64,000 nucleotides of DNA from an uncultured Candidatus Saccharibacteria bacterium (GCA_964596875.1 CAZQVT010000001.1:175161-239160); one strand, 5' to 3'; shown: positions 5,164-63,406, counted from the first letter of the stretch. The notes: generated by a model not told the origin, from the letters alone. Translations and numbers: made by a program.

Positions 5164-5192
5164 TTGACGTTTATTTAAATAAATGATATACT
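5164..5192 (+). promoter_or_regulatory. sigma70-like promoter TTGACG-17-TATACT driving GC-rich small ORF
   Basis: near-consensus -35/-10 with 17-nt spacer ~55 nt upstream of ORF; GGGAGG RBS at ~5233. Confidence 0.55.
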
Positions 5193-5247
5193 ATATATAG
5201 GTTAATCCGCTCAAGGTTTTGCCTTGGGAGAAGGGAGGTAGATCAAA

Positions 5248-5460
5248 ATGACGCCACTTGCGAGTGAAGTACCGATCGTTCCGAGCATCATTCCTCTGTT
5301 GTTCGGTGAAGAGGGTGACTCCGGAGACGACGGAGACAACGGAAGCTCCGGAGACGACGGAGACGGCGGAACCGGTCAGGGTGATGATCCGGGGGATTCT
5401 TCGGGAGATGACTCCGGACCCGACCATGACGACTACGGTCACGACTCCGATGCCGACTAG
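5248..5460 (+). CDS. small acidic Asp/Gly/Ser-rich protein (70 aa), GC-rich minicassette 1
   Basis: ATG 9 nt downstream of GGGAGG; hydrophobic N-terminus then D/G/S low-complexity tail; internal DNA tandem repeats; GC far above flanks. Confidence 0.4.
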   Translation: MTPLASEVPIVPSIIPLLFGEEGDSGDDGDNGSSGDDGDGGTGQGDDPGDSSGDDSGPDHDDYGHDSDAD

Positions 5461-5486
5461 TTCGGCATGTGACTGACTGACGAGAG

Positions 5487-5513
5487 CGCCACTACCAATC
5501 CGGTAGTGGCGCT
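5487..5513 (+). terminator. hairpin GCGCCACTACC-AATCC-GGTAGTGGCGC after small ORF
   Basis: perfect 11-bp inverted repeat followed by short T stretch. Confidence 0.5.
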
Positions 5514-5539
5514 CGAACTTTTATATTATAATTTTACAC

Positions 5540-9737: not shown

Positions 9738-10426
9738 TGGCACAGGAACAAGTTTGGGACAGGGAATACAAAACATCAAAGCTTTTAACAAAAGACAACA
9801 AACCACAGTCAGATGTGGTGCGTTTTGTTAAATACTTAAAAAAAGATATTAGTTTTCAAATAGAAGGTGCGCAAGTTTTAGATCTTGGTTCTGGCGCAGG
9901 TAGAAACAGTTTTTATTTTGCAGAACTGGGTGCGAGTGTTGTGGGGCTTGAGATATCTAAAACTGCAGTAGAGATCGCAAATAAATACGCAACTGTGGCT
10001 GGGCTCAATATAAAATACATAAAACAAAGTATTGGAGAGACTTTTCCGGTAGAGGATAGTTCAGTAGACATTTTATTAGATATTACATCTTCAAACTCAT
10101 TAGATGAAAAAGAAAGAGAAGTTTATTTAAGCGAATCTCACAGAGTTTTGAAAAATAATGGAATATTTTTTGTAAAAGCACTTTGTTCGGAAGGGGATGA
10201 GAATGCAAAATTTTTAATAAAAAACCATCCTGGTAAGGAAAAAGATACATATATAATGCCGGAACTTGGTGTCACAGAACGTGTTTGGAGTAAGCAGGAT
10301 TTTGTAGATACTTATTCAAAATATTTCAAAGTATTGAATATGGAGAAAAAAACTAGTTATTCGAGGATGAATGGTCGCGTCTACAAACGTAACTTCTGGA
10401 TTTGTTACCTAAAAACAGAAAAATAG
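9737..10426 (+). CDS. class I SAM-dependent methyltransferase
   Basis: motif I VLDLGSGAGRN; TAATG overlap with kinase. Confidence 0.8.
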   Translation: MAQEQVWDREYKTSKLLTKDNKPQSDVVRFVKYLKKDISFQIEGAQVLDLGSGAGRNSFYFAELGASVVGLEISKTAVEIANKYATVAGLNIKYIKQSIGETFPVEDSSVDILLDITSSNSLDEKEREVYLSESHRVLKNNGIFFVKALCSEGDENAKFLIKNHPGKEKDTYIMPELGVTERVWSKQDFVDTYSKYFKVLNMEKKTSYSRMNGRVYKRNFWICYLKTEK

Positions 10427-10512
10427 CATCGTCTGCGTTGTTGCAGTTCAGTTTTGTTTGTTCACCTTACTACCTGTAAGGCTCACTCACAAAACTTCCT
10501 GCGCCTAGCATC
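10427..10512 (+). repeat. intergenic structured hairpin element, copy A (nested stems GTTTTGT/ACAAAAC and CCTTAC/GTAAGG)
   Basis: ~95% identical to copy B at 28221-28303; shares core with copies C, D, E. Confidence 0.7.
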
Positions 10513-10569
10513 CAATACTATTTATCTCCTTTTAGATTTACAAATGTTGTTTATCTGTAAAAATAAACA

Positions 10570-10597: not shown

Positions 10598-10633
10598 TAA
10601 TGTTGAACTGTTCCGACCCAAGGAGGGTCAAAG

Positions 10634-11305
10634 ATGGCGAAAAGCGTGAAAAAGGCTAAGGCTCGTCGAAACAACTGGAAGCGCGAAGCGACCGAAATCA
10701 TGGAGTTGCTGAAGGGCGCCAAGGCAACCATCGAGGCTCTCGAGCTCAAGCAGACTCAGTCGGATTCGGAGCTCGTCGGGGTGAAGGCCGAACTCGAATC
10801 GGCGAAGGCCGAACTCGACAAGGCCAAGGAAGAACTCGGTGCCGTGAAGGCCAAGTTGGCCGAAGTGGAGGCCGGCCTGTCGGCGCTGGAGACCACCAAC
10901 AAGGACCTGGTCAACAGGAACTTCGCTCTGGAAAGCGGCTTCTACGGCTCGCGTAGCAAGTCGCGTCGGCTCGAGAGTCGAAATCGCGAACTGCGGTTGG
11001 AAATCGACTCGCGCCGTCGGCTCGCCGGGGTTCTGGCTGTGTTTCATCACGCCAGTACCTGCACGGAGGACTGCTTAGAGGAGTTCGCGGCAGCCGGCCG
11101 GGCTGTGGGCGTCGACATCGACAAGATCGACAAGGCCCATGTGTCGGAAGCCTACAAGGCAGCCGGCCGTCGGCTTCACAAGCTGACCTGGGAGAAGGGT
11201 ATCCGCATGACCAAGTCGCACATGAGCCCTCAGTCAGCGACGGACTCACTCGAGGCTACGATCAACGCTGTCGAGCAGATGCTCGGGATGCGCGATCGGG
11301 TCTAG
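10634..11305 (+). CDS. coiled-coil hypothetical protein (223 aa), GC-rich minicassette 2
   Basis: heptad-like E/K/A/L-rich N-terminal half; strong RBS; GC ~58% vs ~35% flanks. Confidence 0.5.
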   Translation: MAKSVKKAKARRNNWKREATEIMELLKGAKATIEALELKQTQSDSELVGVKAELESAKAELDKAKEELGAVKAKLAEVEAGLSALETTNKDLVNRNFALESGFYGSRSKSRRLESRNRELRLEIDSRRRLAGVLAVFHHASTCTEDCLEEFAAAGRAVGVDIDKIDKAHVSEAYKAAGRRLHKLTWEKGIRMTKSHMSPQSATDSLEATINAVEQMLGMRDRV

Positions 11306-11323
11306 CCGAGGGGTGTAGAAGGT

Positions 11324-11358
11324 GGGGTGGCTTCGGTCGCCCCAGCTTCTTTTTTTTA
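11324..11358 (+). terminator. GC-rich hairpin + T9 run
   Basis: GGGGTGGC-TTCG-GTCGCCCC stem (with wobbles) followed by TTTTTTTTT. Confidence 0.6.
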
Positions 11359-16518: not shown

Positions 16519-16538
16519 ATATGTTAGATTAGGAACAT

Positions 16539-16648
16539 ATGATCCCGTAAGAAATAGAAGGAGATCGGGATTACCATTATCAGATAATTCAAATAATTAA
16601 ATAAGGAGTAGTAATTAAATATACGATCTCCTATTTCAAACGGGATGA
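16539..16648 (+). promoter_or_regulatory. structured leader / TIR element L1 enclosing aspS start codon
   Basis: 5' arm ATGATCCCGTAAGAAAT pairs with 3' arm ATTTCAAACGGGATGA (ATG = aspS start); same arms in L2 and L3. Confidence 0.6.
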
Positions 16649-18039
16649 CAAGAATTTATATTAAAGATTTGGGGGCACATGTGGGGGAGGAGGTCACTAT
16701 TAAAGGCTGGGTAGACGTACGCCGAGACCAAGGAAAAATGGTCTTTATCGATATGCGAGATATGTCTGGCCGAGTTCAGTGTGTGGTTTTGCCAAACTAT
16801 ACAGAGGTTATTGAAAAGGTTAAAGAAGTTAGAACAGAATGGGTTCTAGAACTAAAAGGAAAAGTAAACAAAAGACCAGAAAGAAACATTAAGGCTGGTG
16901 TACTAAACGGGGATATTGAGCTAGAGGTTACTGGACTAGAAGTTCTAAACAAGTCTGACACTATCCCTTTTGATATTTCAGGAGATACAAAAGAGATAAA
17001 CGAAGAGGTGAGACTAAAATATAGATATGTAGATCTTCGTTCTGACCGAATGCAGAAAAACATTCGAAACCGTCACAAGGTAATAAAACACATACGAGAT
17101 TTTCTAGATAAAGAAAACTTTATTGAGGTGGAAACTCCAATGCTAACAAAATCTACACCAGAAGGTTCTCGAGACTATGTTGTTCCAGCTAGACTATATC
17201 CTGGAAAGTTTTATGCATTGCCACAGTCTCCACAACAGTACAAACAACTACTTATGACATCTGGAGTTGAAAAATATTTCCAAATAGCCCGATGTATGCG
17301 TGACGAGGACACTCGTGGAGACAGACAACCAGAGTTTACACAACTTGATATGGAAATATCTTTCGTTGCACGCGAGGATGTAATGGAGCTAAACGAGAAA
17401 CTACTTATAGATCTAGTTACAAAACTTTATCCAGAAAAGAAAATCCAACAGGTTCCTTTCCCACGACTTACATATGCGGAGGCAATGGAGAAATACAACT
17501 CTGACAAACCAGACCTGCGAGAAGATAAAAACGATCCGAACCTTTTGGCATTCTGCTGGGTGATAGATTTTCCTTTCTTTGAGAAAACTGACACAGGAGC
17601 ATGGACATTTACTCATAACCCATTTTCTAGACCAAAACCTGAACACATGGATTGGTTAATGAAGAAAGAAAATATTGCTGAGATACTTACAACTCAATAC
17701 GACGTTGCGCTAAACGGCTTTGAAATCGGTGGGGGAAGTATAAGAAACCATAACCCAGAGGCACTAGAAAAAGTTTTTGAAATCATGGGTCACAGTATGG
17801 AAAACATCAAAGCAAACTTTGGTCACATGCTTTCTGCATTTTCATTAGGTACTCCACCGCACGGAGGTATAGCGTGGGGACTAGATAGACTTGTTATGCT
17901 ACTACAAAACGAACCAAACATTCGTGAAGTTATTCCTTTTGCAAAAACTGGTGAAGGTAAGGACCCTATGATGGATTCTCCAAGTGAAATCTCTGACGAG
18001 CAACTGCTTGAACTAAATATCAAAACACTAAAGAAATAA
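16645..18039 (+). CDS. aspS: aspartate--tRNA ligase (short form without GAD insertion)
   Basis: class II motifs FYALPQSPQ, GGGSIRNHN; N-terminal OB fold; 464 aa. Confidence 0.8.
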   Translation: MTRIYIKDLGAHVGEEVTIKGWVDVRRDQGKMVFIDMRDMSGRVQCVVLPNYTEVIEKVKEVRTEWVLELKGKVNKRPERNIKAGVLNGDIELEVTGLEVLNKSDTIPFDISGDTKEINEEVRLKYRYVDLRSDRMQKNIRNRHKVIKHIRDFLDKENFIEVETPMLTKSTPEGSRDYVVPARLYPGKFYALPQSPQQYKQLLMTSGVEKYFQIARCMRDEDTRGDRQPEFTQLDMEISFVAREDVMELNEKLLIDLVTKLYPEKKIQQVPFPRLTYAEAMEKYNSDKPDLREDKNDPNLLAFCWVIDFPFFEKTDTGAWTFTHNPFSRPKPEHMDWLMKKENIAEILTTQYDVALNGFEIGGGSIRNHNPEALEKVFEIMGHSMENIKANFGHMLSAFSLGTPPHGGIAWGLDRLVMLLQNEPNIREVIPFAKTGEGKDPMMDSPSEISDEQLLELNIKTLKK

Positions 18040-18360: not shown

Positions 18361-19089
18361 ATGCCGGATGAGTTTCTAGTTAAAACACATATTTTTGAAG
18401 GTCCATTGGACACACTCCTTTCTCTTATTGAAAAAAGGAAACTTTTCATAAACGATATTTCACTTGCACAGGTTGCCGATGACTATATCGCGTATATAAA
18501 AACTCTAGAAAATTTTCCAATAGCCGACTCCTCACATTTTATTCTTATCGCATCAACCTTAGTTTTAATTAAATCAAAATCTTTACTACCAGACTTGCAA
18601 CTAACCCCCGAAGAAGAAGAAAACATTCACAACCTTGAGGATAGACTAAAGCAGTACCAAAAATATAAGGCACTTTCGCAACATTTGAAAGAAAAGTTTG
18701 GGATAAACATAGAGTACCTAAGACTTCCAAGCAAAGAAAAAAAGATCGTTTTTACTCCTGACAAAAACACTGACATCTCTAAAATGCGTGAAGCGGTAAA
18801 AATACTTATCCAAAACCTACCTAAAAAAGAATTCGTCCCAAAGGCTATAGTTCAAAAAGTTATTTCACTTGAGGAAATGATGGATAATTTGTCGGAAAGA
18901 ATCACAAAGAGTTTCAAAATGAGTTTTAAGGATTTTTCTGGACACGGCAAGGCGGAAAAGGTAAATGTGATAGTGAGTTTCCTTGCGATGCTTGAACTAG
19001 TAAAACAGGGGATAATAAATGTAAGACAAGATGCGGACTTTCATGATATTGAAATGGAGACACAATCCATCGGTGTTCCAAGGTATTAA
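18361..19089 (+). CDS. scpA: segregation and condensation protein A
   Basis: N-terminal FEGPLDxLLxLI signature. Confidence 0.85.
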   Translation: MPDEFLVKTHIFEGPLDTLLSLIEKRKLFINDISLAQVADDYIAYIKTLENFPIADSSHFILIASTLVLIKSKSLLPDLQLTPEEEENIHNLEDRLKQYQKYKALSQHLKEKFGINIEYLRLPSKEKKIVFTPDKNTDISKMREAVKILIQNLPKKEFVPKAIVQKVISLEEMMDNLSERITKSFKMSFKDFSGHGKAEKVNVIVSFLAMLELVKQGIINVRQDADFHDIEMETQSIGVPRY

Positions 19090-19090
19090 A

Positions 19091-19213
19091 ACTTCCAAAT
19101 TTGGCGATCTACTCGTTTCAAAATTGAAAATGTTCGTCACCTTACTACTTGTAAGGCTTCTCACATTTTCAATTCCTCAACTTTGTGTCTCATCCAAATT
19201 GTGAAAGTTTGTT
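19091..19213 (+). repeat. intergenic structured hairpin element, copy C
   Basis: outer stem ATTGAAAATG/CATTTTCAAT, internal loop TTCGTCA/CTTCTCA, inner stem CCTTAC/GTAAGG, 3' tail CAAATTGTGAAAGTTTG; homologous to copy D. Confidence 0.7.
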
Positions 19214-20840: not shown

Positions 20841-20850
20841 AAGTTTTTGT

Positions 20851-20898
20851 AAACGAAAAGGCCGACACGATAGTCTGTATGACCTGATCGTATCGGCC
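20851..20898 (-). terminator. hairpin GGCCGA(T)ACGAT...ATCGT(G)TCGGCC + TTTTCGTTT ending GC-rich minicassette 3
   Basis: 11-bp imperfect inverted repeat followed by T run on - strand, just after stop of 20917 ORF. Confidence 0.55.
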
Positions 20899-20916
20899 GA
20901 AGCCCGTGTGTGTGGG

Positions 20917-21186
20917 CTAGAACCGCTTACTGACGTACTTGAGTGCTTCCCAGGTGAGTAACACCAGTGAGGAGTACACGATTGGCAGTGACGCCAGTCC
21001 GTACTCGTAGCTCTCGGTGAACATGGAGACCATGAGTCCCAGAGTCAGTACTCCGTGCAGAAGCAGGGGAACGAAGTACAGTACTATTGCAGGGAGAACG
21101 AGGCTAATGATTGCCCCGAACACCCTGAGCCACTTGTCGTCTCGATACCCGCCCATGAGGAGCGGGTTAAAGCCCAAGCATCCCAT
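20917..21186 (-). CDS. hypothetical small membrane protein (89 aa, ~2 TM), gene 3 of GC-rich minicassette 3
   Basis: ATG preceded by GGAGGAGCG; hydrophobic helices; GC-rich. Confidence 0.45.
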   Translation of the reverse strand: MGCLGFNPLLMGGYRDDKWLRVFGAIISLVLPAIVLYFVPLLLHGVLTLGLMVSMFTESYEYGLASLPIVYSSLVLLTWEALKYVSKRF

Positions 21187-21194
21187 CGCTCCTC

Positions 21195-21299
21195 CTACAT
21201 CTTGAAGGCGATAACCGCCAGGATTACGGCGATGCAGCCCAAGGCGAATTGGATTTCTCTTGTAGCCTTCTTGAAGTACTCGAACTGTTCTTCGGTCAT
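21195..21299 (-). CDS. 34-aa single-TM peptide (MTEEQFEYFKKATREIQFALGCIAVILAVIAFKM), gene 2 of minicassette 3
   Basis: not in ORF track (<60 aa); ATG 6 nt after TAGGAGGCT RBS; stop 8 nt before next ATG. Confidence 0.4.
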   Translation of the reverse strand: MTEEQFEYFKKATREIQFALGCIAVILAVIAFKM

Positions 21300-21309
21300 G
21301 CCTAGCCTC

Positions 21310-21735
21310 CTATCGAAGTTGGACCATCTCGCCGACCACGTCGTCCTTGCCTTCGAGGCTTTGGACGATGAAGTTGGTTGCTCCGCAGGCGTCGCAGAGG
21401 AACTTCACGACATCCATCTTCTGGATCTCGAGTTCCTCCACCTTGTCGATCGTGACGAAGTTCTTGTCGACGATCTTGCCGAGATGCACTCGGACCTTGC
21501 CCGTTGTGTTCAACTTGAACGCGATCACTCCGGGCTTGGTGTCGTACCGGAGCTTCATCCCGATGGCGCTGTGAGGCACGATGGTGAACTGGACGGAGTT
21601 TTCAAGTGCGATCGCGTACGGCTTCATGGGCTGGGTTGTTTCCACCCAGTAAACCATTGAAACTATCGCGACCGTGAGTGCGCAAATGACGAGTATTCCT
21701 CGCCAGTGGCGGGACAGAGTAGTGTCTTCGGTCAT
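21310..21735 (-). CDS. hypothetical membrane-anchored protein (141 aa, N-terminal TM), gene 1 of minicassette 3
   Basis: ATG 6 nt after GGAGGCC RBS, consensus promoter upstream. Confidence 0.5.
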   Translation of the reverse strand: MTEDTTLSRHWRGILVICALTVAIVSMVYWVETTQPMKPYAIALENSVQFTIVPHSAIGMKLRYDTKPGVIAFKLNTTGKVRVHLGKIVDKNFVTIDKVEELEIQKMDVVKFLCDACGATNFIVQSLEGKDDVVGEMVQLR

Positions 21736-21754
21736 GCTGTGGCCTCCGATATTA

Positions 21755-26940: not shown

Positions 26941-26952
26941 CACATCCTCATT

Positions 26953-27078
26953 ATGAATCCCGTAAGAAATTATTTAGTTAAAAGGATGAATGTGGTTATG
27001 TGTGATAAAATTATTCGAACAAACATTATTATTAATTTTATATACGGAAACTAAAGTTTCCTATTTCAAACGGGATGA
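26953..27078 (+). promoter_or_regulatory. structured leader / TIR element L2 enclosing murG start codon
   Basis: 5' arm ATGAATCCCGTAAGAAAT, penultimate hairpin ACGGAAAC-TAAA-GTTTCC, 3' arm TATTTCAAACGGGATGA. Confidence 0.6.
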
Positions 27079-28208
27079 AAATATTACTTACTGGTGGAGG
27101 TAGCGCAGGACATTTTTACCCACTTGTTGCGGTTGCACAAAAACTAAATGAACTAGCAAAAGAAAACAGGCTTTTGAAACCAGAGTTGTACTATATGTCG
27201 ACTGACCCTTTTGACGAAAACCTTTTGTACGAAAACAGTATTACCTTTATAAAAGTAAACGCGGGAAAAATCCGAAAAGATAAAACACTTTCGAACAGAA
27301 TCCTAAACTTTATGGATTTGTTTAGTACTTTTCACGGAGTGCTTACAGCGCTTTGGAAAGTTTTTGTTATTTATCCAGATGTAGTTTTTGGAAAAGGGGG
27401 CTATGTGAGTTTCCCAGCACTTTTTGCAGCAAGGTTTCTAGGAATACCGGTAGTGATACACGAGTCAGACAGTAAACCTGGAAAAGTAAACGCTTGGGCT
27501 GGAAAGTTTGCAACAAAAGTTGCGGTTTCATACCCCGATGCCGCTTCATACTTTAAGGCTGAAAAAACTGCCTACACCGGTAACCCGATAAGAAAAGAAA
27601 TAGAAGACCCACAAGTTTCTGGTTCACACGAGCATTTTGGTTTCGACAGCAGTATACCTACAGTTTTTGTTATAGGTGGTTCACAGGGTGCTCGTTTCAT
27701 AAACAGCGCTATCATGGATGCTTTGCCAGAACTTGTAAAGAAATACCAAGTCATACATCAGACGGGCGTAAACAACCTTTCCGTTATTCAGGAGACTTCT
27801 GCGGTGGTGCTTTTAAACAGTGAACACAAGGAAAGATACGTGGCAATACCGTACCTAAACGCCCTAAACCTGCGTATGGCGGCGGGGGCTGCAGATGTGA
27901 TAGTATCACGAGCAGGTTCAACTATATTTGAAATAGCGAGTTGGGGCAGGGCTTCTATTATTATCCCTATCCCAGAGCCAACAAGTCATGACCAAAAAAC
28001 AAACGCTTATGCCTATGCTAGAAGTGGCGCTGCGGTTGTAATAGAAGAAAAAAACATGGCACCAGGAATACTACTAGCAGAGATACAAAGAGTAGTAACT
28101 GTTGAAAAAGAAAAAATGCAGGCTGCAGCAAAAGCATTTTCTAGAAGAGATTCTGCAAGACTCATAGCCGAAGAGTTGATAGCAATCGGCCTACAACACG
28201 AGAGATGA
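27075..28208 (+). CDS. murG: undecaprenyldiphospho-muramoylpentapeptide beta-N-acetylglucosaminyltransferase
   Basis: N-terminal ILLTGGGSAGH motif, GT28 fold. Confidence 0.85.
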   Translation: MKILLTGGGSAGHFYPLVAVAQKLNELAKENRLLKPELYYMSTDPFDENLLYENSITFIKVNAGKIRKDKTLSNRILNFMDLFSTFHGVLTALWKVFVIYPDVVFGKGGYVSFPALFAARFLGIPVVIHESDSKPGKVNAWAGKFATKVAVSYPDAASYFKAEKTAYTGNPIRKEIEDPQVSGSHEHFGFDSSIPTVFVIGGSQGARFINSAIMDALPELVKKYQVIHQTGVNNLSVIQETSAVVLLNSEHKERYVAIPYLNALNLRMAAGAADVIVSRAGSTIFEIASWGRASIIIPIPEPTSHDQKTNAYAYARSGAAVVIEEKNMAPGILLAEIQRVVTVEKEKMQAAAKAFSRRDSARLIAEELIAIGLQHER

Positions 28209-28220
28209 TTAAAATTAACT

Positions 28221-28303
28221 CATCTGCGTTGTTGCAGTTCAGTTTTGTTCGTTCACCTTACTACTTGTAAGGCTCACTCACAAAACATCCTGCGCCTAGC
28301 ATC
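28221..28303 (+). repeat. intergenic structured hairpin element, copy B
   Basis: ~95% identical to copy A over ~85 nt. Confidence 0.7.
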
Positions 28304-28336
28304 TGAACCAATTTAAATCATCTCAGAACAAATTAT

Positions 28337-29800
28337 ATGAACGATAAAAAAGTAGTAACAAGATTCGCACCTAGTCCAACTGGGTTCATGCATATAGGCG
28401 GTGTTCGCACTGCTCTTTTTGCATACTTGTACGCTAAAAAAATGAAAGGTACTTTTATACTTCGTATCGAAGACACTGATAAGGCACGAGAAGTGGAAGG
28501 TTCAATAGGTCACATACAAGAGTCGCTAAAATGGCTAGGTATCGACCCAGACATAGGTCCAAACAATCCTGGCGAGTTCGGTACTGTTATCCAGTCTGAG
28601 AGACTTCCATCATATCTAGAGTATGCAAATAAACTAATAGAAAAAGGTTTGGCATATCCTGACCCCTATACTGCAGAAGAACTAGATGCTTTTCGTAAAA
28701 AAGCTGAGGAAGAAAAAAGACCTTTTCTGTACCGTGACCACAGACCAGAAAAATTTGAAACTTGGGATGGTAAAAAACCTTTGCGTCTAAAAGTTCCAGA
28801 AATAAAAAGATACAAATGGACCGATGCTGTTCGTGGTGAACTGGAGGCGGGACCAGAAGCACTAGATGACTTTGTGCTTATCAAAGCAGACGGATATCCG
28901 ACATACAACTTTGCACATATTATAGACGACTTAAACATGGGCGTGACACATATCATGCGCGCTGATGAGTTTATTTCTAGCATGCCAAAGTTTCTTTCAC
29001 TATATGATGCACTTGAAATCCCATATCCTGTTTTTGTAACACTTCCTCCTATACTTAAAGACGACCGCACAAAAAAACTTGGTAAAAGAGACGGAGCAAA
29101 AGATATTTTAGAATACAGAACAGAGGGATATCTGCCAGAAGCCATGGCAAACTTTCTCGCACTTATCGGTTGGAACCCGGGTACAGAACAAGAAGTATTT
29201 ACAAAAGATGAACTTATAAACGCATTTGAAATAGAAAAAATTCAGAAATCTGGAGGCGCATTTAACGAGGAAAAACTAGACTGGATGAACAAAGAGCACA
29301 TGAAAAGATTGGACTTAAAAACTGTAACAGACGAGATTGTTTCTCGTCTAAAAAAGTGTGACAAGTTTCAAAATAGTGAAAAGTTTGAAGACTCTGCATT
29401 TGTAGAGAAAGTTTGTCATATAATCTTTGACCATATTTCAAAATGGGGAGATGTAGATGTACAAGCAGGGGAGGGGGAATATGACTTTTATTTCGGCATA
29501 CCCGCATATGACACTACCCTACTTTCATGGAAGGGAAGTAGTCTAGAAAACTCCAAAAAACACCTTGAGTGGGTTTTGGAGAAACTATCTAGTTTGAATG
29601 AAGTAGAGTTTGCAGACGCAGAAAAAATAAAAGCGCATATTTTTGACTATGCTACAGAACAAGGACGTGGTGATGTATTGTGGCCGCTACGAGTTTCACT
29701 TTCTGGCCTAGAAAAAAGCCCTGACCCATTTTCACTTCTTTCTATATTTGGAAAAAATGAAAGCATAAACAGAATAAAAAATGCATTAAATAAGTTGTAA
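28337..29800 (+). CDS. gltX: glutamate--tRNA ligase
   Basis: N-terminal RFAPSPTGFMHIGGVRTALF (HIGH), KLGKRDG (KMSKS-like). Confidence 0.9.
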   Translation: MNDKKVVTRFAPSPTGFMHIGGVRTALFAYLYAKKMKGTFILRIEDTDKAREVEGSIGHIQESLKWLGIDPDIGPNNPGEFGTVIQSERLPSYLEYANKLIEKGLAYPDPYTAEELDAFRKKAEEEKRPFLYRDHRPEKFETWDGKKPLRLKVPEIKRYKWTDAVRGELEAGPEALDDFVLIKADGYPTYNFAHIIDDLNMGVTHIMRADEFISSMPKFLSLYDALEIPYPVFVTLPPILKDDRTKKLGKRDGAKDILEYRTEGYLPEAMANFLALIGWNPGTEQEVFTKDELINAFEIEKIQKSGGAFNEEKLDWMNKEHMKRLDLKTVTDEIVSRLKKCDKFQNSEKFEDSAFVEKVCHIIFDHISKWGDVDVQAGEGEYDFYFGIPAYDTTLLSWKGSSLENSKKHLEWVLEKLSSLNEVEFADAEKIKAHIFDYATEQGRGDVLWPLRVSLSGLEKSPDPFSLLSIFGKNESINRIKNALNKL

Positions 29801-31843: not shown

Positions 31844-33052
31844 TTAAATAAATTGCTTGATCATGTGTTCGAATCCAATTGTATCAGGTGTGCCTCCAAG
31901 CAAACCGAGTCTATACTTCTTCTTTAAATTATCCCTATTTTTTACATCCTTCAATTCAGATACCTTGTAAACAATTGAATTATGCTTCTCTTTTTCCACA
32001 ATAAAAGTTTGATCAAGATTCAGGAGCTCTAAGGTTTCGTGATTATGTGTCGCAAAAAAAATTTGAGCATTACCAGTATTTATATCTTTGTTTTTAAATA
32101 AAGATATAATTGATTTCTCTATTTCTGGGTGAAAATACAAATTTGTCTCGTCATAGACAACTAAACCGCCCTTTTTGAAGACAGTAAGTAAATTATATAT
32201 ATGTGCAAAAAGCTCCTTTGTTCCAGCTGATTCTTGCATTAAATCTACGCTTTCATAAAAACCTTTATGTGAAACTTTCACTGATGATGTATTGTTTTCA
32301 ATATCAAGTGATTCAATAGTGTCGTCAAATCGACTCATTATATCTCTAGTAAGTTTTATCATTTCTTCTTTCTTGTTTTTTTCAGCAGTACTTATTCGAA
32401 ATGCATGAGATATTATTCCAAAAATAGTTGGCATAGAATCTAGCTCCGCAGTTTTCGTAAACCAGGACTTTAAATCCCTAAAATAATTAAAATCTTGACC
32501 AGCCCTAAACCCCTCTATTAGATGTGATAGAAGGGTTTGGTACTCAGCAAGCTTTAAAACTGAAAAATATGATTTATGATCTTTGAAGTCTGGGCCAAAA
32601 GTTATTTTTCCATTGAGTCTGTTGAATACAAGCTTAGGTTTTCCAGATTTTAACTTTGTGTTAGTTACGAACAGAGTTTCCGAGCTAATATTTTTTCTAT
32701 CCTTAATTTCTATGTCGTATTTGTAATAGTTTTCATTCAACAAAATATCTATACCAAGCTTGGTTGGTTTATTTTTAAAAGTAGAATGAAAGTTGTTGTA
32801 GGCTAAAATAGTGTCTTTTTGTTCAGGAGTAAGTGTTGTTTTTGTATACATTAAACGTATAAGCGAACTGATTGCTTTTAAAATAGTACTTTTGCCACTA
32901 GCATTAGCACCGTAGAATCCATTTAGAAGAGAAATCTTCTGATTTTTAAAGTTTAAATATCCATCTTCAGTAGTAGAACCTCCCTTTATAAAGTTCAATT
33001 CTAGTGGTTTACCAACAGAATAAAAGTTTGCTAAACGTATTTTTGTTATCAT
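31844..33052 (-). CDS. AAA_21/ABC-type ATPase, RloA/AbiLi-like
   Basis: Walker A GANASGKST, Walker B VVYDE, H-loop ATHNHE; 402 aa; low GC. Confidence 0.7.
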   Translation of the reverse strand: MITKIRLANFYSVGKPLELNFIKGGSTTEDGYLNFKNQKISLLNGFYGANASGKSTILKAISSLIRLMYTKTTLTPEQKDTILAYNNFHSTFKNKPTKLGIDILLNENYYKYDIEIKDRKNISSETLFVTNTKLKSGKPKLVFNRLNGKITFGPDFKDHKSYFSVLKLAEYQTLLSHLIEGFRAGQDFNYFRDLKSWFTKTAELDSMPTIFGIISHAFRISTAEKNKKEEMIKLTRDIMSRFDDTIESLDIENNTSSVKVSHKGFYESVDLMQESAGTKELFAHIYNLLTVFKKGGLVVYDETNLYFHPEIEKSIISLFKNKDINTGNAQIFFATHNHETLELLNLDQTFIVEKEKHNSIVYKVSELKDVKNRDNLKKKYRLGLLGGTPDTIGFEHMIKQFI

Positions 33053-33557
33053 ATTAATATTTATGCAATAAAATGTACAATTTAAAGTATAGTACCTTAA
33101 ATTAAATACGTCAAACCTTAGGGCAGGGGACTTCCCTACAAATAATAGGAAATTTTAGAACCTCAAATAATGGGGTTCGGATGGTAAAAGGGGTGCTATC
33201 TAGGTACCTAGAAAAGAGAACTCTAAGCCAATTATTTGGTGCATTTTTATATATAAATATTTAATGAAAACCATTTAATGATTAAACTGAACAAACGAAT
33301 CTTTTGAGCAAACCCCCTTAGGGACTATGCTAAAAAGATATATTGTGCGACACGGCTATATACTCCCCCCCTCTATATAACTAACTAAAAACAATAAAAC
33401 ATTTAATTACTAAAATAATTGAATATGTAATTATTTTGCATCAAAAAAATCCCGCCCCCACCCCACCCTGGTTCAGCCGGTTTACACAAAAGTAAAAATA
33501 CATATACTTATTACGAAACACAATATCCGTTCTTTTCGGTTTCTGGAGGTTCGCGCC

Positions 33558-34007
33558 ATGAATGGCATTGAAGGAAACGTTCAGCTGGTGTTCGTGCTGA
33601 TGGGCGTGATCTCTGGTCTTTTGGGCGGAATTGCCCACGCCAAGAAACGGCACGGTTTGGGGTGCTACAAGAACGGCACTCTGAGTCTGACACCACAGTG
33701 GTACCGCTGTGGCAGTTGCTGGACTGCCGTAGTCTTCTACGCGGTTTTCATGGGCTGCATTTTTGCGCTCATGCACGACATTTACTACGCTGGCACTCAG
33801 ACAGTTGGAGGTGCCATCGGACAAGTTGTCGTCACGTTTTTTGGTGTCATATTGTCTGCCGTGTTGACGTTAGCGGTGGCACTGCTGGGCTTGCTTGCCA
33901 TCGGCTACTCGGAACATCGCTGGCCTCAGTGTCGTAAGTATAAGTGGATCTCCTACAGCTTCGCAGTCATCGTTCGAACGTATCTCTATCACCTCACTAG
34001 ATACTAG
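33558..34007 (+). CDS. hypothetical integral membrane protein (149 aa, ~4 TM, Cys-containing), GC-rich minicassette 4
   Basis: ATG 7 nt after GGAGG; GC-rich. Confidence 0.45.
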   Translation: MNGIEGNVQLVFVLMGVISGLLGGIAHAKKRHGLGCYKNGTLSLTPQWYRCGSCWTAVVFYAVFMGCIFALMHDIYYAGTQTVGGAIGQVVVTFFGVILSAVLTLAVALLGLLAIGYSEHRWPQCRKYKWISYSFAVIVRTYLYHLTRY

Positions 34008-34028
34008 GAGCGCAGACAACCACCACAC

Positions 34029-34077
34029 ATCGCAAGTCGCAAGATCCGGAGGATCGCAAGGCGACTTGCGATTTTCC
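34029..34077 (+). terminator. 12-bp perfect hairpin ATCGCAAGTCGC...GCGACTTGCGAT + TTT
   Basis: immediately after 33558-34007 ORF; two further small hairpins follow. Confidence 0.55.
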
Positions 34078-34198
34078 ATATATAAAAATACAGGCTACTT
34101 GCCTGTTTCACATAAATACAAATAGCCCTTGCGGGCCATTTGTCTAATTAGTATAACTCTGGGGCTTTTGTATAGATAGTAAGTTATGCACAGGTAAC

Positions 34199-36053: not shown

Positions 36054-36160
36054 GATTGTTATTATAAGGTTTTTTTGGGTAATGTATAGGTTTGACCACA
36101 CCCTATCTATAATGTAGTCTGTATTGTGGAATACGGGTCATCTTGGCCCACGGAGAAACC

Positions 36161-36496
36161 ATGAGCGAGTCTCTTTTGGGTGAGGTTAAGTTCCCAGTGC
36201 AGTTTGCCTGCGATATCTGCGGGCATCACTTTTCGTGCGAGCGAGAGGGCCTGAAGAGCCACGAAGTCAACAGGAGGCACTTTATCAGACTGATTCGTAC
36301 CACGGTCGTTGCGGCCTGTCCCGCGTGCGATGCAAACGTGGGCAGATCATTCGATGAGCTGCTTCCGGATGCTCCTAACACTCTCGGTGAACTGCGAGCG
36401 CAGTACAAAGTCGCCCGCGGCAACGGTGCTGGGCCTCTCGAGGCCATCGGCTTCGCCAAGTTCAAGATTCGTCTCGTCAAGCGGAGGATCGCATGA
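36161..36496 (+). CDS. hypothetical Cys4 zinc-ribbon protein 1, GC-rich minicassette 5
   Basis: CxxC...CxxC, Arg/Lys-rich tail, GGAG RBS; ATG 36161 preferred over TTG 36143. Confidence 0.4.
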   Translation: MSESLLGEVKFPVQFACDICGHHFSCEREGLKSHEVNRRHFIRLIRTTVVAACPACDANVGRSFDELLPDAPNTLGELRAQYKVARGNGAGPLEAIGFAKFKIRLVKRRIA

Positions 36497-36783
36497 ATCG
36501 TCAGCGCCATCGGTTTGTATGCAGCAATTGTAGTACCTCATTCGAACCGGAGTGTCCGGTCGTCCCAACGGAGAACGTTCGGTCTGAAGTTCCGAAGGCG
36601 AAGCTCCTGGAGGCGAGTTGTCCGCTTTGCGGTTACACGGTCAAGATGATCGTGAACGGAGTGTTGGACATCGAGAGGCTTCATAGCGATCCGGTGAAAC
36701 GTCAGTACTTCCATCACAGGCGTCGCGGAATGGATGCTCCTCTAGCCAGGCGCTTGGCGAACCGGCTCGCCACAAGAAACTAG
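36493..36783 (+). CDS. hypothetical Cys4 zinc-ribbon protein 2 (translationally coupled)
   Basis: ATGA start/stop overlap with previous ORF, GGAGG RBS, CxxC...CxxC, basic C-terminus. Confidence 0.4.
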   Translation: MNRQRHRFVCSNCSTSFEPECPVVPTENVRSEVPKAKLLEASCPLCGYTVKMIVNGVLDIERLHSDPVKRQYFHHRRRGMDAPLARRLANRLATRN

Positions 36784-36806
36784 TTCCCGCCCCTCTGGGG
36801 CATACC

Positions 36807-36841
36807 AGCCCGTGGCCGAGTTCGCTCGTCGCGGGCTTTGT
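36807..36841 (+). terminator. hairpin AGCCCG...CGGGCT + TTT after zinc-ribbon pair
   Basis: 6-bp GC stem with weak U tract; also GCCCC-TCT-GGGGC hairpin at 36789-36801. Confidence 0.4.
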
Positions 36842-36853
36842 CACATCTCTTTG

Positions 36854-38755: not shown

Positions 38756-38774
38756 AAATTTTGTTTGTTAGTCA

Positions 38775-38900
38775 CAGAGCTTCCATTTTTGAAAAATTTC
38801 TTTGTTGGAACTTCGGAAACTCTCGTCACCTTATACTAGATAAGGCTCCTCGCTTTTCCTTGTTCCGCCTCGAACTTTTCTCAAAAACTGAAAGCGTGTG
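38775..38900 (+). repeat. intergenic structured hairpin element, copy E (in dnaK upstream region, + orientation)
   Basis: CTCGTCA-CCTTAT-ACTAG-ATAAGG-CTCCTCGC with outer GGAAA/TTTCC; compensatory stem change vs copies C and D. Confidence 0.65.
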
Positions 38901-62264: not shown

Positions 62265-63266
62265 CTAAATTCTGAACTCTATAACGTCGCCGTCCTTTAC
62301 AATATACTCCTTCCCCTCCGTCCTAACCTGCCCCTTCTCTCTCGCTACTGCATATGAACCAGACGCAAGTAAGCCATCGCAGTGAACAACTTCTGCACGT
62401 ATAAACTTATCTTTAAAGTCTGTATGTATTGCTGTTCCTGCCATAGGCGCGCTCCAACCTTTCTCTATAGTCCATGCGCGACTCTCGTCCTCACCTGTCG
62501 TAAAATAAGTAATTAGTCCCAAAGTTTCGTATGCTTTTTTAATTAGATCGTCGAAACCCTTTTCAAAAACTGGATCAATCTCAACAAAGTTTCCAGGGAT
62601 TCTATCTTTTACATCCAAAACATTTTCACTACTCGCCTCCGATGTGTTTAGTGCATACAAAATAGGTTTCATCGTCAAAAGGTGCATGTTTTTTACAACT
62701 TCTAGTTCTTCTTCGGTCAGCAAAAGAGTATTTGCAAGTTTGCCTTGTTTTAAAGTCTCCTGTACTTTTGTAAGAACTTCGTTTTCAAAAACAGCTTCTT
62801 TTTTGTTTTGTTTTACTTCACGCTGAATATTTCCAAGTCTTTTTGTTATAGTTTCGTCATCCGCCAAAACTAGTTCGTAGTTTATAACATCTATATCTCC
62901 TAGTGGGTCAACTTTTCCATGCACATGGATAACATCGTCGTCCTTGAATACTCGCACCATTTCAAGAATCGCATCTACCTCACGAATATTAGTCAAAAAT
63001 TTATTTCCTAGACCTTCTCCTGCTGCCGCCCCTTTTACAAGACCTGCAATATCAACAAACTCGATAACTGCTGGGATAGTTTTCGCAGATTTAGAAAGTT
63101 CTGAAAGTTTCCAAAGTCTTTCGTCTGGAACAGGCACAATACCAACAGATGGGTCGATAGTACAAAAAGGATAGTTTTCTGCCGGAACGCCTTTTTTTGT
63201 AAGTGCATTAAAAAGCGTAGATTTACCCACGTTTGGAAGGCCAACGATACCTATAGAAAGTTTCAT
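62265..63266 (-). CDS. ychF: ribosome-binding ATPase YchF (Obg family)
   Basis: G1 GLPNVGKST, C-terminal TGS domain. Confidence 0.85.
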   Translation of the reverse strand: MKLSIGIVGLPNVGKSTLFNALTKKGVPAENYPFCTIDPSVGIVPVPDERLWKLSELSKSAKTIPAVIEFVDIAGLVKGAAAGEGLGNKFLTNIREVDAILEMVRVFKDDDVIHVHGKVDPLGDIDVINYELVLADDETITKRLGNIQREVKQNKKEAVFENEVLTKVQETLKQGKLANTLLLTEEELEVVKNMHLLTMKPILYALNTSEASSENVLDVKDRIPGNFVEIDPVFEKGFDDLIKKAYETLGLITYFTTGEDESRAWTIEKGWSAPMAGTAIHTDFKDKFIRAEVVHCDGLLASGSYAVAREKGQVRTEGKEYIVKDGDVIEFRI

Positions 63267-63390
63267 CCCGTTTGAGATAGGAAACCTGTGGTTTCCGTAG
63301 TTAAATTATGTTTTATTAAATTATTTCGACCACTTAGTTATTTATAAATATATTTTTCAACATTAACCACGTAATCTCTTACGGGATCAT
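63263..63390 (-). promoter_or_regulatory. structured leader / TIR element L3 enclosing ychF start codon
   Basis: on - strand: ATGATCCCGTAAGAGAT ... ACGGAAACCACAGGTTTCC TATCTCAAACGGGATGA. Confidence 0.6.
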
Positions 63391-63406
63391 ATTTTATAAA
63401 TATGAC

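Follow-up and report, generated by a model that had tools for sequence, protein, structure and literature searches.

Strand-specific nested hairpin repeats at gene ends in Patescibacteria and Dormibacteraeota

Two near-identical copies and their family

The window, by which we mean the whole 64,000-nucleotide stretch of DNA that was analysed, has a GC content of about 35%. The ORFs in it that match a Pfam family are all housekeeping genes, namely aminoacyl-tRNA synthetases, mur/fts genes, ribosomal protein genes, dnaK/dnaJ/grpE and ABC transporters. The nearest named relatives of its MurG are from Parcubacteria group bacteria and, at about 65% identity, from Candidatus Zambryskibacteria, and the genome is therefore assigned to the CPR (Patescibacteria). 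Five GC-rich islands lie between the housekeeping genes (approximately 5190-5520, 10600-11350, 20850-21750 on the minus strand, 33440-34080 and 36100-36850), with peaks of 45-54% GC in 500-nt windows against about 35% for the genome. Each of these small islands has one to three orphan ORFs with no Pfam match, together with a leader that is AT-rich and promoter-like and a hairpin that is GC-rich and terminator-like. A homologous cassette is present at the same site in one related locus (L009), and other cassettes are found in the dnaJ-dnaK spacer of two more (L002 and L005).

Two intergenic sequences in the window, copies A and B, are closely similar. An earlier note on this DNA had placed A after a methyltransferase gene and B, 17.8 kb away, between murG and gltX, with about four differences over about 85 nt. 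All of this is borne out: the methyltransferase ORF ends at 10426, murG ends at 28208 and gltX starts at 28337, and a pattern search of the window allowing up to three mismatches found exactly two sites, the cores of A (10432-10512, plus strand) and B (28223-28303, plus strand), which differ at 3 of 81 nt. The three differences all fall at unpaired positions of the predicted fold. The similarity can be extended without gaps to 117 nt at 85% identity, and this pair is the sole long direct repeat of the window. The full hairpins extend beyond this span of about 85 nt, reaching from 10409 to 10535 and from 28204 to 28322. The left arm of A takes in the last five codons of the methyltransferase ORF and its TAG stop codon (10424-10426), and B starts inside the last codon and TGA stop codon of murG.

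A and B are the closest two members of a family of six copies, all intergenic and 115-130 nt long, each of which folds as a single long nested hairpin. The features are as follows.

10409..10535, element on the plus strand, best-folding strand minus: copy A, full hairpin; RNA fold of the minus strand -54.8 kcal/mol, z = -10.5
10432..10512, plus strand: copy A, 81-nt conserved core
10432-10444, plus strand: copy A, 5' box TCTGCGTTGTTGC
10463-10481, plus strand: copy A, apical hairpin CACCTTAC-TACCT-GTAAGG
10501-10512, plus strand: copy A, 3' box GCGCCTAGCATC
19089..19210, plus strand: copy #2 (subfamily I), between scpA and scpB; 132 bits
20713..20836, plus strand: copy #3 (subfamily I), directly 3' of the stop codon of a D-Ala-D-Ala carboxypeptidase gene; 88.6 bits
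28204..28322, plus strand: copy B, full hairpin; RNA fold of the minus strand -45.5 kcal/mol, z = -7.6
28223..28303, plus strand: copy B, 81-nt core, with 5' box at 28223-28235, apical hairpin at 28254-28272 and 3' box at 28292-28303
38766..38896, plus strand: copy #5, between dnaK (minus strand) and the gene upstream of dnaK; 86.3 bits
62161..62291, minus strand: copy #6, after a ychF-like gene (62265-63266, minus strand); 75.8 bits

The window has six occurrences of the apical motif CACCTTA-N4-12-TAAGG, where 0.09 would be expected; five are on the plus strand (10463, 19138, 20765, 28254 and 38827) and one is on the minus strand (62212). Scoring of every window position with a covariance model found the same six copies and no others, with 76-132 bits for one strand of a copy and 19-31 bits for the opposite strand; A scores 89.5 bits on the minus strand, and B scores 101 bits on the minus strand against 21.8 on the plus strand. 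Copy #3 precedes GC-rich cassette 3, copy #5 is the sole window copy antisense to its neighbours and copy #6 has a perfect 12-bp terminal inverted repeat (TTCAGAATTTAG/CTAAATTCTGAA).

A 21-base apical pattern was scanned against one genome per GTDB species and gave 51 loci in about 15 genomes, almost all of them CPR (Zambryskibacteria, Paceibacterota, Parcubacteria, Minisyncoccia and MAGs labelled Saccharibacteria); several of the CPR genomes have 6-13 copies each. The copies fall into three subfamilies, of which subfamily II includes A and B, and there are also some chimeras. One chimera (L058) has a subfamily II core within subfamily I arms. The only non-CPR record title among the 51 genome loci is that of a contig labelled Nitrospira sp. 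(L050, JBEBJM010000007.1), the element and AT-rich flanks of which resemble the CPR copies; this 15-kb contig may be mis-binned.

Structure, strand and placement

The element consists of an apical stem-loop flanked by TCA...CTC, variable inner stems with compensatory changes, the boxes TCTGCGTTGTTGC and GCGCCTAGCATC, which form a predicted irregular helix with tandem G·A pairs and asymmetric loops, and outer arms that are specific to each locus and always mutually complementary. RNAalifold predicts 23 consensus pairs from an alignment of 65 copies, and 20 of the 23 have compensatory double changes. Standard pairs fill 96.4% of the cells, compared with 77.2% when partners are shuffled, and none of 500 shuffles reached the observed value; there are 233 double-change cells against 55 in the shuffles, and sliding the partner by 1-3 columns reduces pairing to 33-51%. 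The earlier note had considered structural constraint on the hairpin, which these figures confirm. It had also drawn a local hairpin, CTGC-GTTGTT-GCAG, which is not the conserved pairing of the family: in the fold common to the family, the GCAG in the 5' arm has a distant partner, the CTGC just 5' of GCGCCTAGCATC, and this pair covaries among the copies (GCTG/CAGC, GCAC/GTGC and GCGGCC/GGCCGC).

The two strands of the element are not equivalent. In all 62 CPR copies, some of which are orthologous and hence non-independent, the better RNA fold is on the strand opposite to the CACCTTA orientation (the bottom strand), with means of -48.5 kcal/mol for the bottom strand and -34.1 for the top strand. 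The bottom-strand folds contain 264 G·U pairs and only 9 A·C 1x1 mismatches. With DNA folding parameters the difference between the strands has the same direction and is smaller. The folds indicate that the structural constraint acts on one strand only, the one antisense to the upstream gene; it is possible that the wobble asymmetry arises from mutation, for instance through a deamination bias.

The placement of the element relative to genes is also regular. Of 60 copies, 55 have the same orientation as the gene on their 5' side, and the end of that gene's stop codon is 47-52 nt 5' of the apical core in 41 of 56, in a set that includes orthologous copies and in which the genes of the relatives were called by simple ORF heuristics. 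The best-folding strand is antisense to the upstream gene because of this co-orientation. The hairpin starts 0-5 nt 3' of the upstream stop codon or includes it, and a paired third base of the stop codon covaries with its partner (A-T for TAA, G-C for TAG). In the 3' direction the next gene is 10-100 nt or more away.

At about 31 kb of the window the cumulative GC skew peaks and the gene orientation flips from plus to minus, which looks like a replication terminus or simply a point of transcription convergence. This switch bears on which strand of the element is the lagging-strand template; from the GC skew, the best-folding strand is predicted to be the leading-strand template for co-directional genes. 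Beside the switch is a non-coding stretch of 400 nt (33053-33440), adjoined by an ORF (31844-33052, minus strand) with an AAA_21 (AbiEii-like ATPase) domain, which may be a defence-related gene.

Two further resemblances were put down to coincidence. The apex GAGCCGUAC...GUACGGUGA slightly resembles domain V of group II introns, and the Rfam intron models gave no match. B contains the string ATCCTGC, which is like an RP4-type nic site, and this string is not conserved in the other copies.

Junctions in relatives and in a second phylum

Copy B is absent from the murG-gltX junction in all the relatives examined (L002-L013). In the loci of eight relatives, whose MurG proteins are 79-92% identical to that of the window, murG and gltX overlap or are 1-9 nt apart; in the window the distance is 128 nt and the spacer is copy B. 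Similarly, scpA and scpB are separated by 4 nt (CATT) in L002 and by 147 nt, with copy #2, in the window, and L009 has the GC-rich cassette adjacent to the site of copy #3 and lacks copy #3 itself. The element is thus present or absent at identical junctions of related genomes and is therefore mobile, one of the readings that the earlier note had offered.

Recent duplication of A to give B, which had also been suggested, is not supported. A degenerate subfamily II element directly follows the methyltransferase gene in L068 and L069 (protein 81% identical), and L066 and L067, which are as distant, have no element there. The site upstream of dnaK, occupied by copy #5 in the window, also has an element in L002 and L004. 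Judged by these occupied sites, A and #5 are old copies. At the dnaK site the elements of the window (38766-38896) and of L002 (19176-19307) belong to different subfamilies and are 62% identical, and they share conserved outer ends (GAGCTTCCA...AAGCGTG). The pattern hints at exchange of the inner sequence within an outer 'socket' that persists.

The cores of A and B are 96% identical and their outer arms 53%. The mean identity among 14 copies of subfamily II, drawn from 7 genomes, is 84% for the 81-nt core and 61% for the 18-nt outer arms. The core of B is 94% identical to a copy in the Zambryskibacteria MAG PPGI01 despite a MurG identity of about 64%, so high core identity is a property of the family. 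A and B nevertheless share a derived compensated pair, GTTTTG...CAAAAC where all the others have ATTTTG...CAAAAT, and therefore belong to one lineage within the genome. Five of seven orthologous pairs have 88-95% identity in the element and 77-83% in the adjacent 450 nt of coding DNA. The pair from L051 and L052 (83% against 87%) and the pair at the dnaK site (62% against 81%) are not better conserved than the upstream coding DNA, and another pair is about equal (77% for the element, 76% for coding DNA).

Copies of the element are also found outside the CPR. JGI metagenome contigs were searched for TCTGCGTTGTTGC followed after 45-65 nt by GCGCCTAGCATC, a pattern of 25 specified bases, and at least 120 contigs matched, compared with about 0.02 expected by chance. 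The inner stems of these copies are wholly different in sequence and the architecture is the same: CA...TG stands beside the boxes, TCA...CTC flanks the apex, and the outer arms are long and complementary. Among the matches listed, the loci have 40-70% GC, the bottom strand folds better in 116 of 119 distinct copies and the upstream gene, called by simple ORF heuristics, is co-oriented in 73 cases and opposed in 17. The 12 nt outside the boxes, again among the matches listed, are 75.6% Watson-Crick paired, with 13% bottom-strand wobble and 1.2% top-strand wobble; they comprise 77 different arm sequences, and shuffling the partners among copies gives 44% Watson-Crick pairs.

The largest GC-rich group among the matches listed is Candidatus Dormibacteraeota, as judged from named PurB homologues. 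In one such locus (L081, 8758-8945) a hairpin of about 190 nt fills the purB-purC spacer, with a fold of -122 kcal/mol on the bottom strand and -96 on the top strand. In L190 purB and purC overlap as ATGA, which is the empty site, and the element is therefore mobile in this second phylum too. The named MAG with this empty purB-purC site, GCA_035937155.1, has a canonical copy between purF and purM instead.

The flanks of 14 well-delimited copies contain no common direct repeat or target-site duplication. Models with duplication of TA, of TAA or of the stop codon, compared by eye and with position profiles, were rejected, none of them fitting most copies. The two best-resolved junctions have short direct repeats of unequal length. 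At B, the ancestral GATGATTAAAATTATGAA has become GATGATTAAAATTA/ACTCA...GAACAAATTA/TATGAAC, with the direct repeat AAATTA; at purB/purC, AAATGATCGCC has become AAGTGA/TTTTGCGATCCC...CCCGTGA/TCGCAGG, with the direct repeat GTGA.

In both of these cases the outermost stem pairs inserted DNA with pre-existing flank, which is the stop region of murG on the left of B and the first codons of purC on the right of the purB/purC element. At the A locus the C-terminal codons of the methyltransferase gene differ between the window (10409-10431) and L068 (3660-3800), and the right arm tracks each. The junction sequences suggest that the palindrome may extend itself into its flanks after insertion. The outermost arms of B are at 28204-28222 and 28304-28336, and the arms differ at every locus. 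No conserved terminal inverted repeat was found; the termini vary yet stay complementary (AACTT/AAGTT, AGCTT/AAGCT, GGCTT/AAGCC).

Nature of the element

On balance we lean towards reading A and B as copies of a non-autonomous, hairpin-forming interspersed repeat, similar to REPs, REPINs and MITEs in lifestyle, that acts via one single strand and is possibly domesticated. Such a repeat would colonise the first nucleotides after a stop codon, or overlap the stop codon, mostly in the orientation of the upstream gene, and its propagation, its function or both would depend on one strand folding as a single-stranded nucleic acid. This is likelier to be single-stranded DNA handled by a trans-acting enzyme than RNA, because the bottom strand has no conserved promoter and the corresponding position in Dormibacteraeota is coding sequence. 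The boxes TCTGCGTTGTTGC and GCGCCTAGCATC would then be the likely recognition site of a protein. The palindrome probably grows outward on its unconstrained side by self-templated synthesis of the fold-back, quasipalindrome type, which would account for arms in which a stop or start codon that was already there is mirrored on the opposite side. The host may then have kept many copies, for instance in the role of terminator-like or mRNA 3'-end structures, since most orthologous pairs are better conserved than the neighbouring coding sequence.

An enzyme was looked for in several ways. No transposase, integrase, reverse transcriptase or HUH/Y1 enzyme is present among the Pfam-matched ORFs of the 64-kb window. 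Scans of the loci, which are 8-20 kb long outside the window, with nhmmer and the covariance model for an autonomous parent returned only short full-length units; this holds for all 74 nhmmer matches, none of which flanks an ORF. Clustering of the ORFs neighbouring 120 metagenome loci gave no recurrent enzyme, only orthologous housekeeping genes such as purB and purL. Viral contigs contained no match to the element and plasmids no meaningful one. We found no description of CPR repeats of this kind in the literature, and the box sequences appear in no paper found.

The element lacks the defining features of classical MITEs, REPINs, attC sites and IS200/IS605-derived elements. The REP, BIME and REPIN sequences of Proteobacteria, which are mobilised by RAYT (Y1 HUH) transposases, are like it in being short, non-coding, palindromic, multi-copy, intergenic and often just 3' of stop codons; they are also non-autonomous, form single-strand hairpins with strand-specific recognition, and have been co-opted for effects on mRNA stability, termination or translation. 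A REPIN, however, has two conserved REP units at its ends, whereas the element is one nested hairpin with a conserved apex, internal boxes and variable ends. REP units of 20-40 nt with 5' GTAG/GGAG and inverted doublets are not found in the 65-copy alignment, and no RAYT gene, which in those systems is itself bordered by the repeats, lies within the 64-kb window. The hosts also differ, the element being found in CPR and Dormibacteraeota, and REPs are specific to a species or RAYT whereas the boxes of the element are common to several phyla.

Bacterial MITEs (Correia/NEMIS, ERIC/IRU, RUP and Bacillus bcr1) share with the element a length of about 100-190 nt, a non-coding and multi-copy nature, insertion polymorphism, hairpin potential and co-transcription with neighbouring genes. 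Classical DDE-type MITEs have a fixed target-site duplication and a conserved terminal inverted repeat, both of which the element lacks, and no parent IS with common ends was found for it. In contrast to MITEs, its orientation and position are tightly fixed to the stop codon and compensatory evolution continues up to its termini. PATEs derived from IS200/IS605 resemble it in the lack of target-site duplication, in their strand-specific hairpins and in the single-stranded DNA chemistry that is implied, but have two separate subterminal hairpins and a fixed tetra- or pentanucleotide just 5' of the insertion site. The element has one nested hairpin and no conserved flanking tetranucleotide on either strand, and its folded strand is the predicted leading-strand template, the opposite of what is expected for the IS200/IS605 type.

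That A and B represent instead a cis element with a host function seems somewhat unlikely to us, although more probable than the other rivals. The element would act at the ends of genes, either to insulate or terminate transcription in one direction or as a structure for the 3' end or processing of mRNA. With its flanking A and T tracts, the strong hairpin of the bottom strand would block antisense transcription into the upstream gene, while the weaker sense-strand hairpin, interrupted by A·C mismatches, would permit read-through of the operon. It could also modulate the termination of translation like E. coli REPs within 15 nt of a stop codon; REPs near stop codons in E. coli are reported to down-regulate translation and are the nearest functional precedent (PMC12306157).

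The orientation bias and the wobble asymmetry of the element suit a direction-specific role, as does the conservation of five of seven orthologous pairs above flanking coding DNA. The element sits between co-transcribed genes (murG-gltX, scpA-scpB, purB-purC and purF-purM), and A4 and T4 tracts flank the base of the hairpin in subfamily I copies. Rho-independent (bidirectional) terminators are likewise gene-end hairpins flanked by an A-tract and a T-tract, but their stems are 7-20 bp whereas that of the element is about 50 bp with conserved boxes; the element is, unlike them, a dispersed homologous family located between co-transcribed genes. A plain terminator would not need boxes of 12-13 nt that are identical across phyla, and neither strand of A or B has a U-tract following the hairpin. 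A scan with a terminator consensus flags only the small CTGC...GCAG stem with TTCAGTTTTG inside A and B. The copies are also dispensable, with close relatives lacking them at the same junctions. Conservation above coding DNA, together with the identity of the boxes across phyla, fits a function at the level of the host at least as well as selfish mobility.

It is improbable that the copies are small RNA genes on the bottom strand, encoding stable hairpin RNAs of about 120-190 nt with the irregular helix as a protein-binding motif. The strand-specific covariation rich in G·U pairs is a classic signature of structured RNA, folding z-scores are about -10, and the conserved non-canonical features, namely the asymmetric loops and the tandem G·A pairs, are of a kind typically seen in RNA motifs. 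However, no conserved promoter-like sequence is present upstream on the bottom strand, where the sequence in Dormibacteraeota is the coding region of purC, and a 90% bias to lie antisense to neighbours would not be expected of independent genes. There was no match to Rfam 15 at the gathering threshold in the whole window or in twenty GC-rich loci, and at E <= 10 nothing meaningful was found for the regions of A and #2 and nothing at all for the Dormibacteraeota copy. ARAGORN detected no tRNA or tmRNA.

We regard as very improbable the possibility of single-strand recombination sites, similar to integron attC, that capture the GC-rich orphan-gene cassettes. An attC site is also an imperfect hairpin of 60-140 nt that directly follows an ORF, is co-oriented with it, has a structured bottom strand and conserves only short boxes around a variable middle, and A and #3 are directly upstream of GC-rich cassettes 2 and 3. 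Against this, the R'' (RYYYAAC) and R' (GTTRRRY) core sites are absent from the ends of the element, no integrase is encoded in the window, and the genes 5' of the element are syntenic housekeeping genes, found too in relatives that have no element there, rather than arrays of cassettes. The element is missing beside cassettes in L009 and L066, and B, #2 and #6 have no cassette. The association of A with GC-rich cassette 2 in the earlier note is coincidental: relatives have cassettes at the same sites and lack the element there.

Chance, an assembly artefact or slowly evolving intergenic DNA almost certainly does not account for the similarity of A and B: none of 100 dinucleotide-preserving shuffles gave such a match, B with its flanks is identical at every base in an independent Logan assembly, the window has no other long intergenic repeats, and there are hundreds of homologous copies elsewhere.

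We would propose more tentatively that the A/B-type core marks a previously undescribed superfamily of strand-specific hairpin elements in Patescibacteria (CPR), Dormibacteraeota and other lineages of 50-70% GC, which would be new either as a class of mobile DNA or as a widespread structured RNA. Its marks would be the boxes TCTGCGTTGTTGC and GCGCCTAGCATC as an irregular helix and a bottom-strand GAG-stem-UGA apex. As mobile DNA, the folded single strand would be handled by a dedicated enzyme, integrate at stop/start junctions and then extend the palindrome into its flanks.

The base-exact conservation of the core across phyla, the five of seven better-conserved pairs and the constraint on one strand point to specific machinery for single-stranded nucleic acid that has not been described previously. 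If identified, this machinery could give a new mechanism of transposition or recombination, or a new class of regulatory RNA or DNA. CPR bacteria have tiny, tightly packed genomes and are considered poor in mobile DNA, but the CPR window has about one copy of the element per 10 kb, and the element splits translationally coupled essential genes (murG/gltX, scpA/scpB and purB/purC) without killing them. The element could serve as a marker linking the CPR with Dormibacteraeota and Chloroflexota-related lineages, a link that could reflect horizontal transfer or the shared ancestry that some phylogenies suggest. Repeats of this kind will confuse the calling of gene starts and stops, and assembly, in such genomes.

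A second, unrelated family of hairpin repeats, about 120-140 nt long and with no Rfam match, is present in the window at 16535-16650 (plus strand), 26945-27080 (plus strand) and 63261-63405 (minus strand), immediately upstream of the start codons of an aspS-like gene, murG and the ychF-like gene. The ftsW-murG spacer that holds one of these copies is only 6 nt long in relatives, and this family therefore also looks inserted. The three copies have common ends (ATGA(A/T)CCCGTAAGA...CTCCTATYTCAAACGGGATGA), and their internal stem covaries (ACGGAAAC/GTTTCC against GGAGATCG/CGATCTCC).
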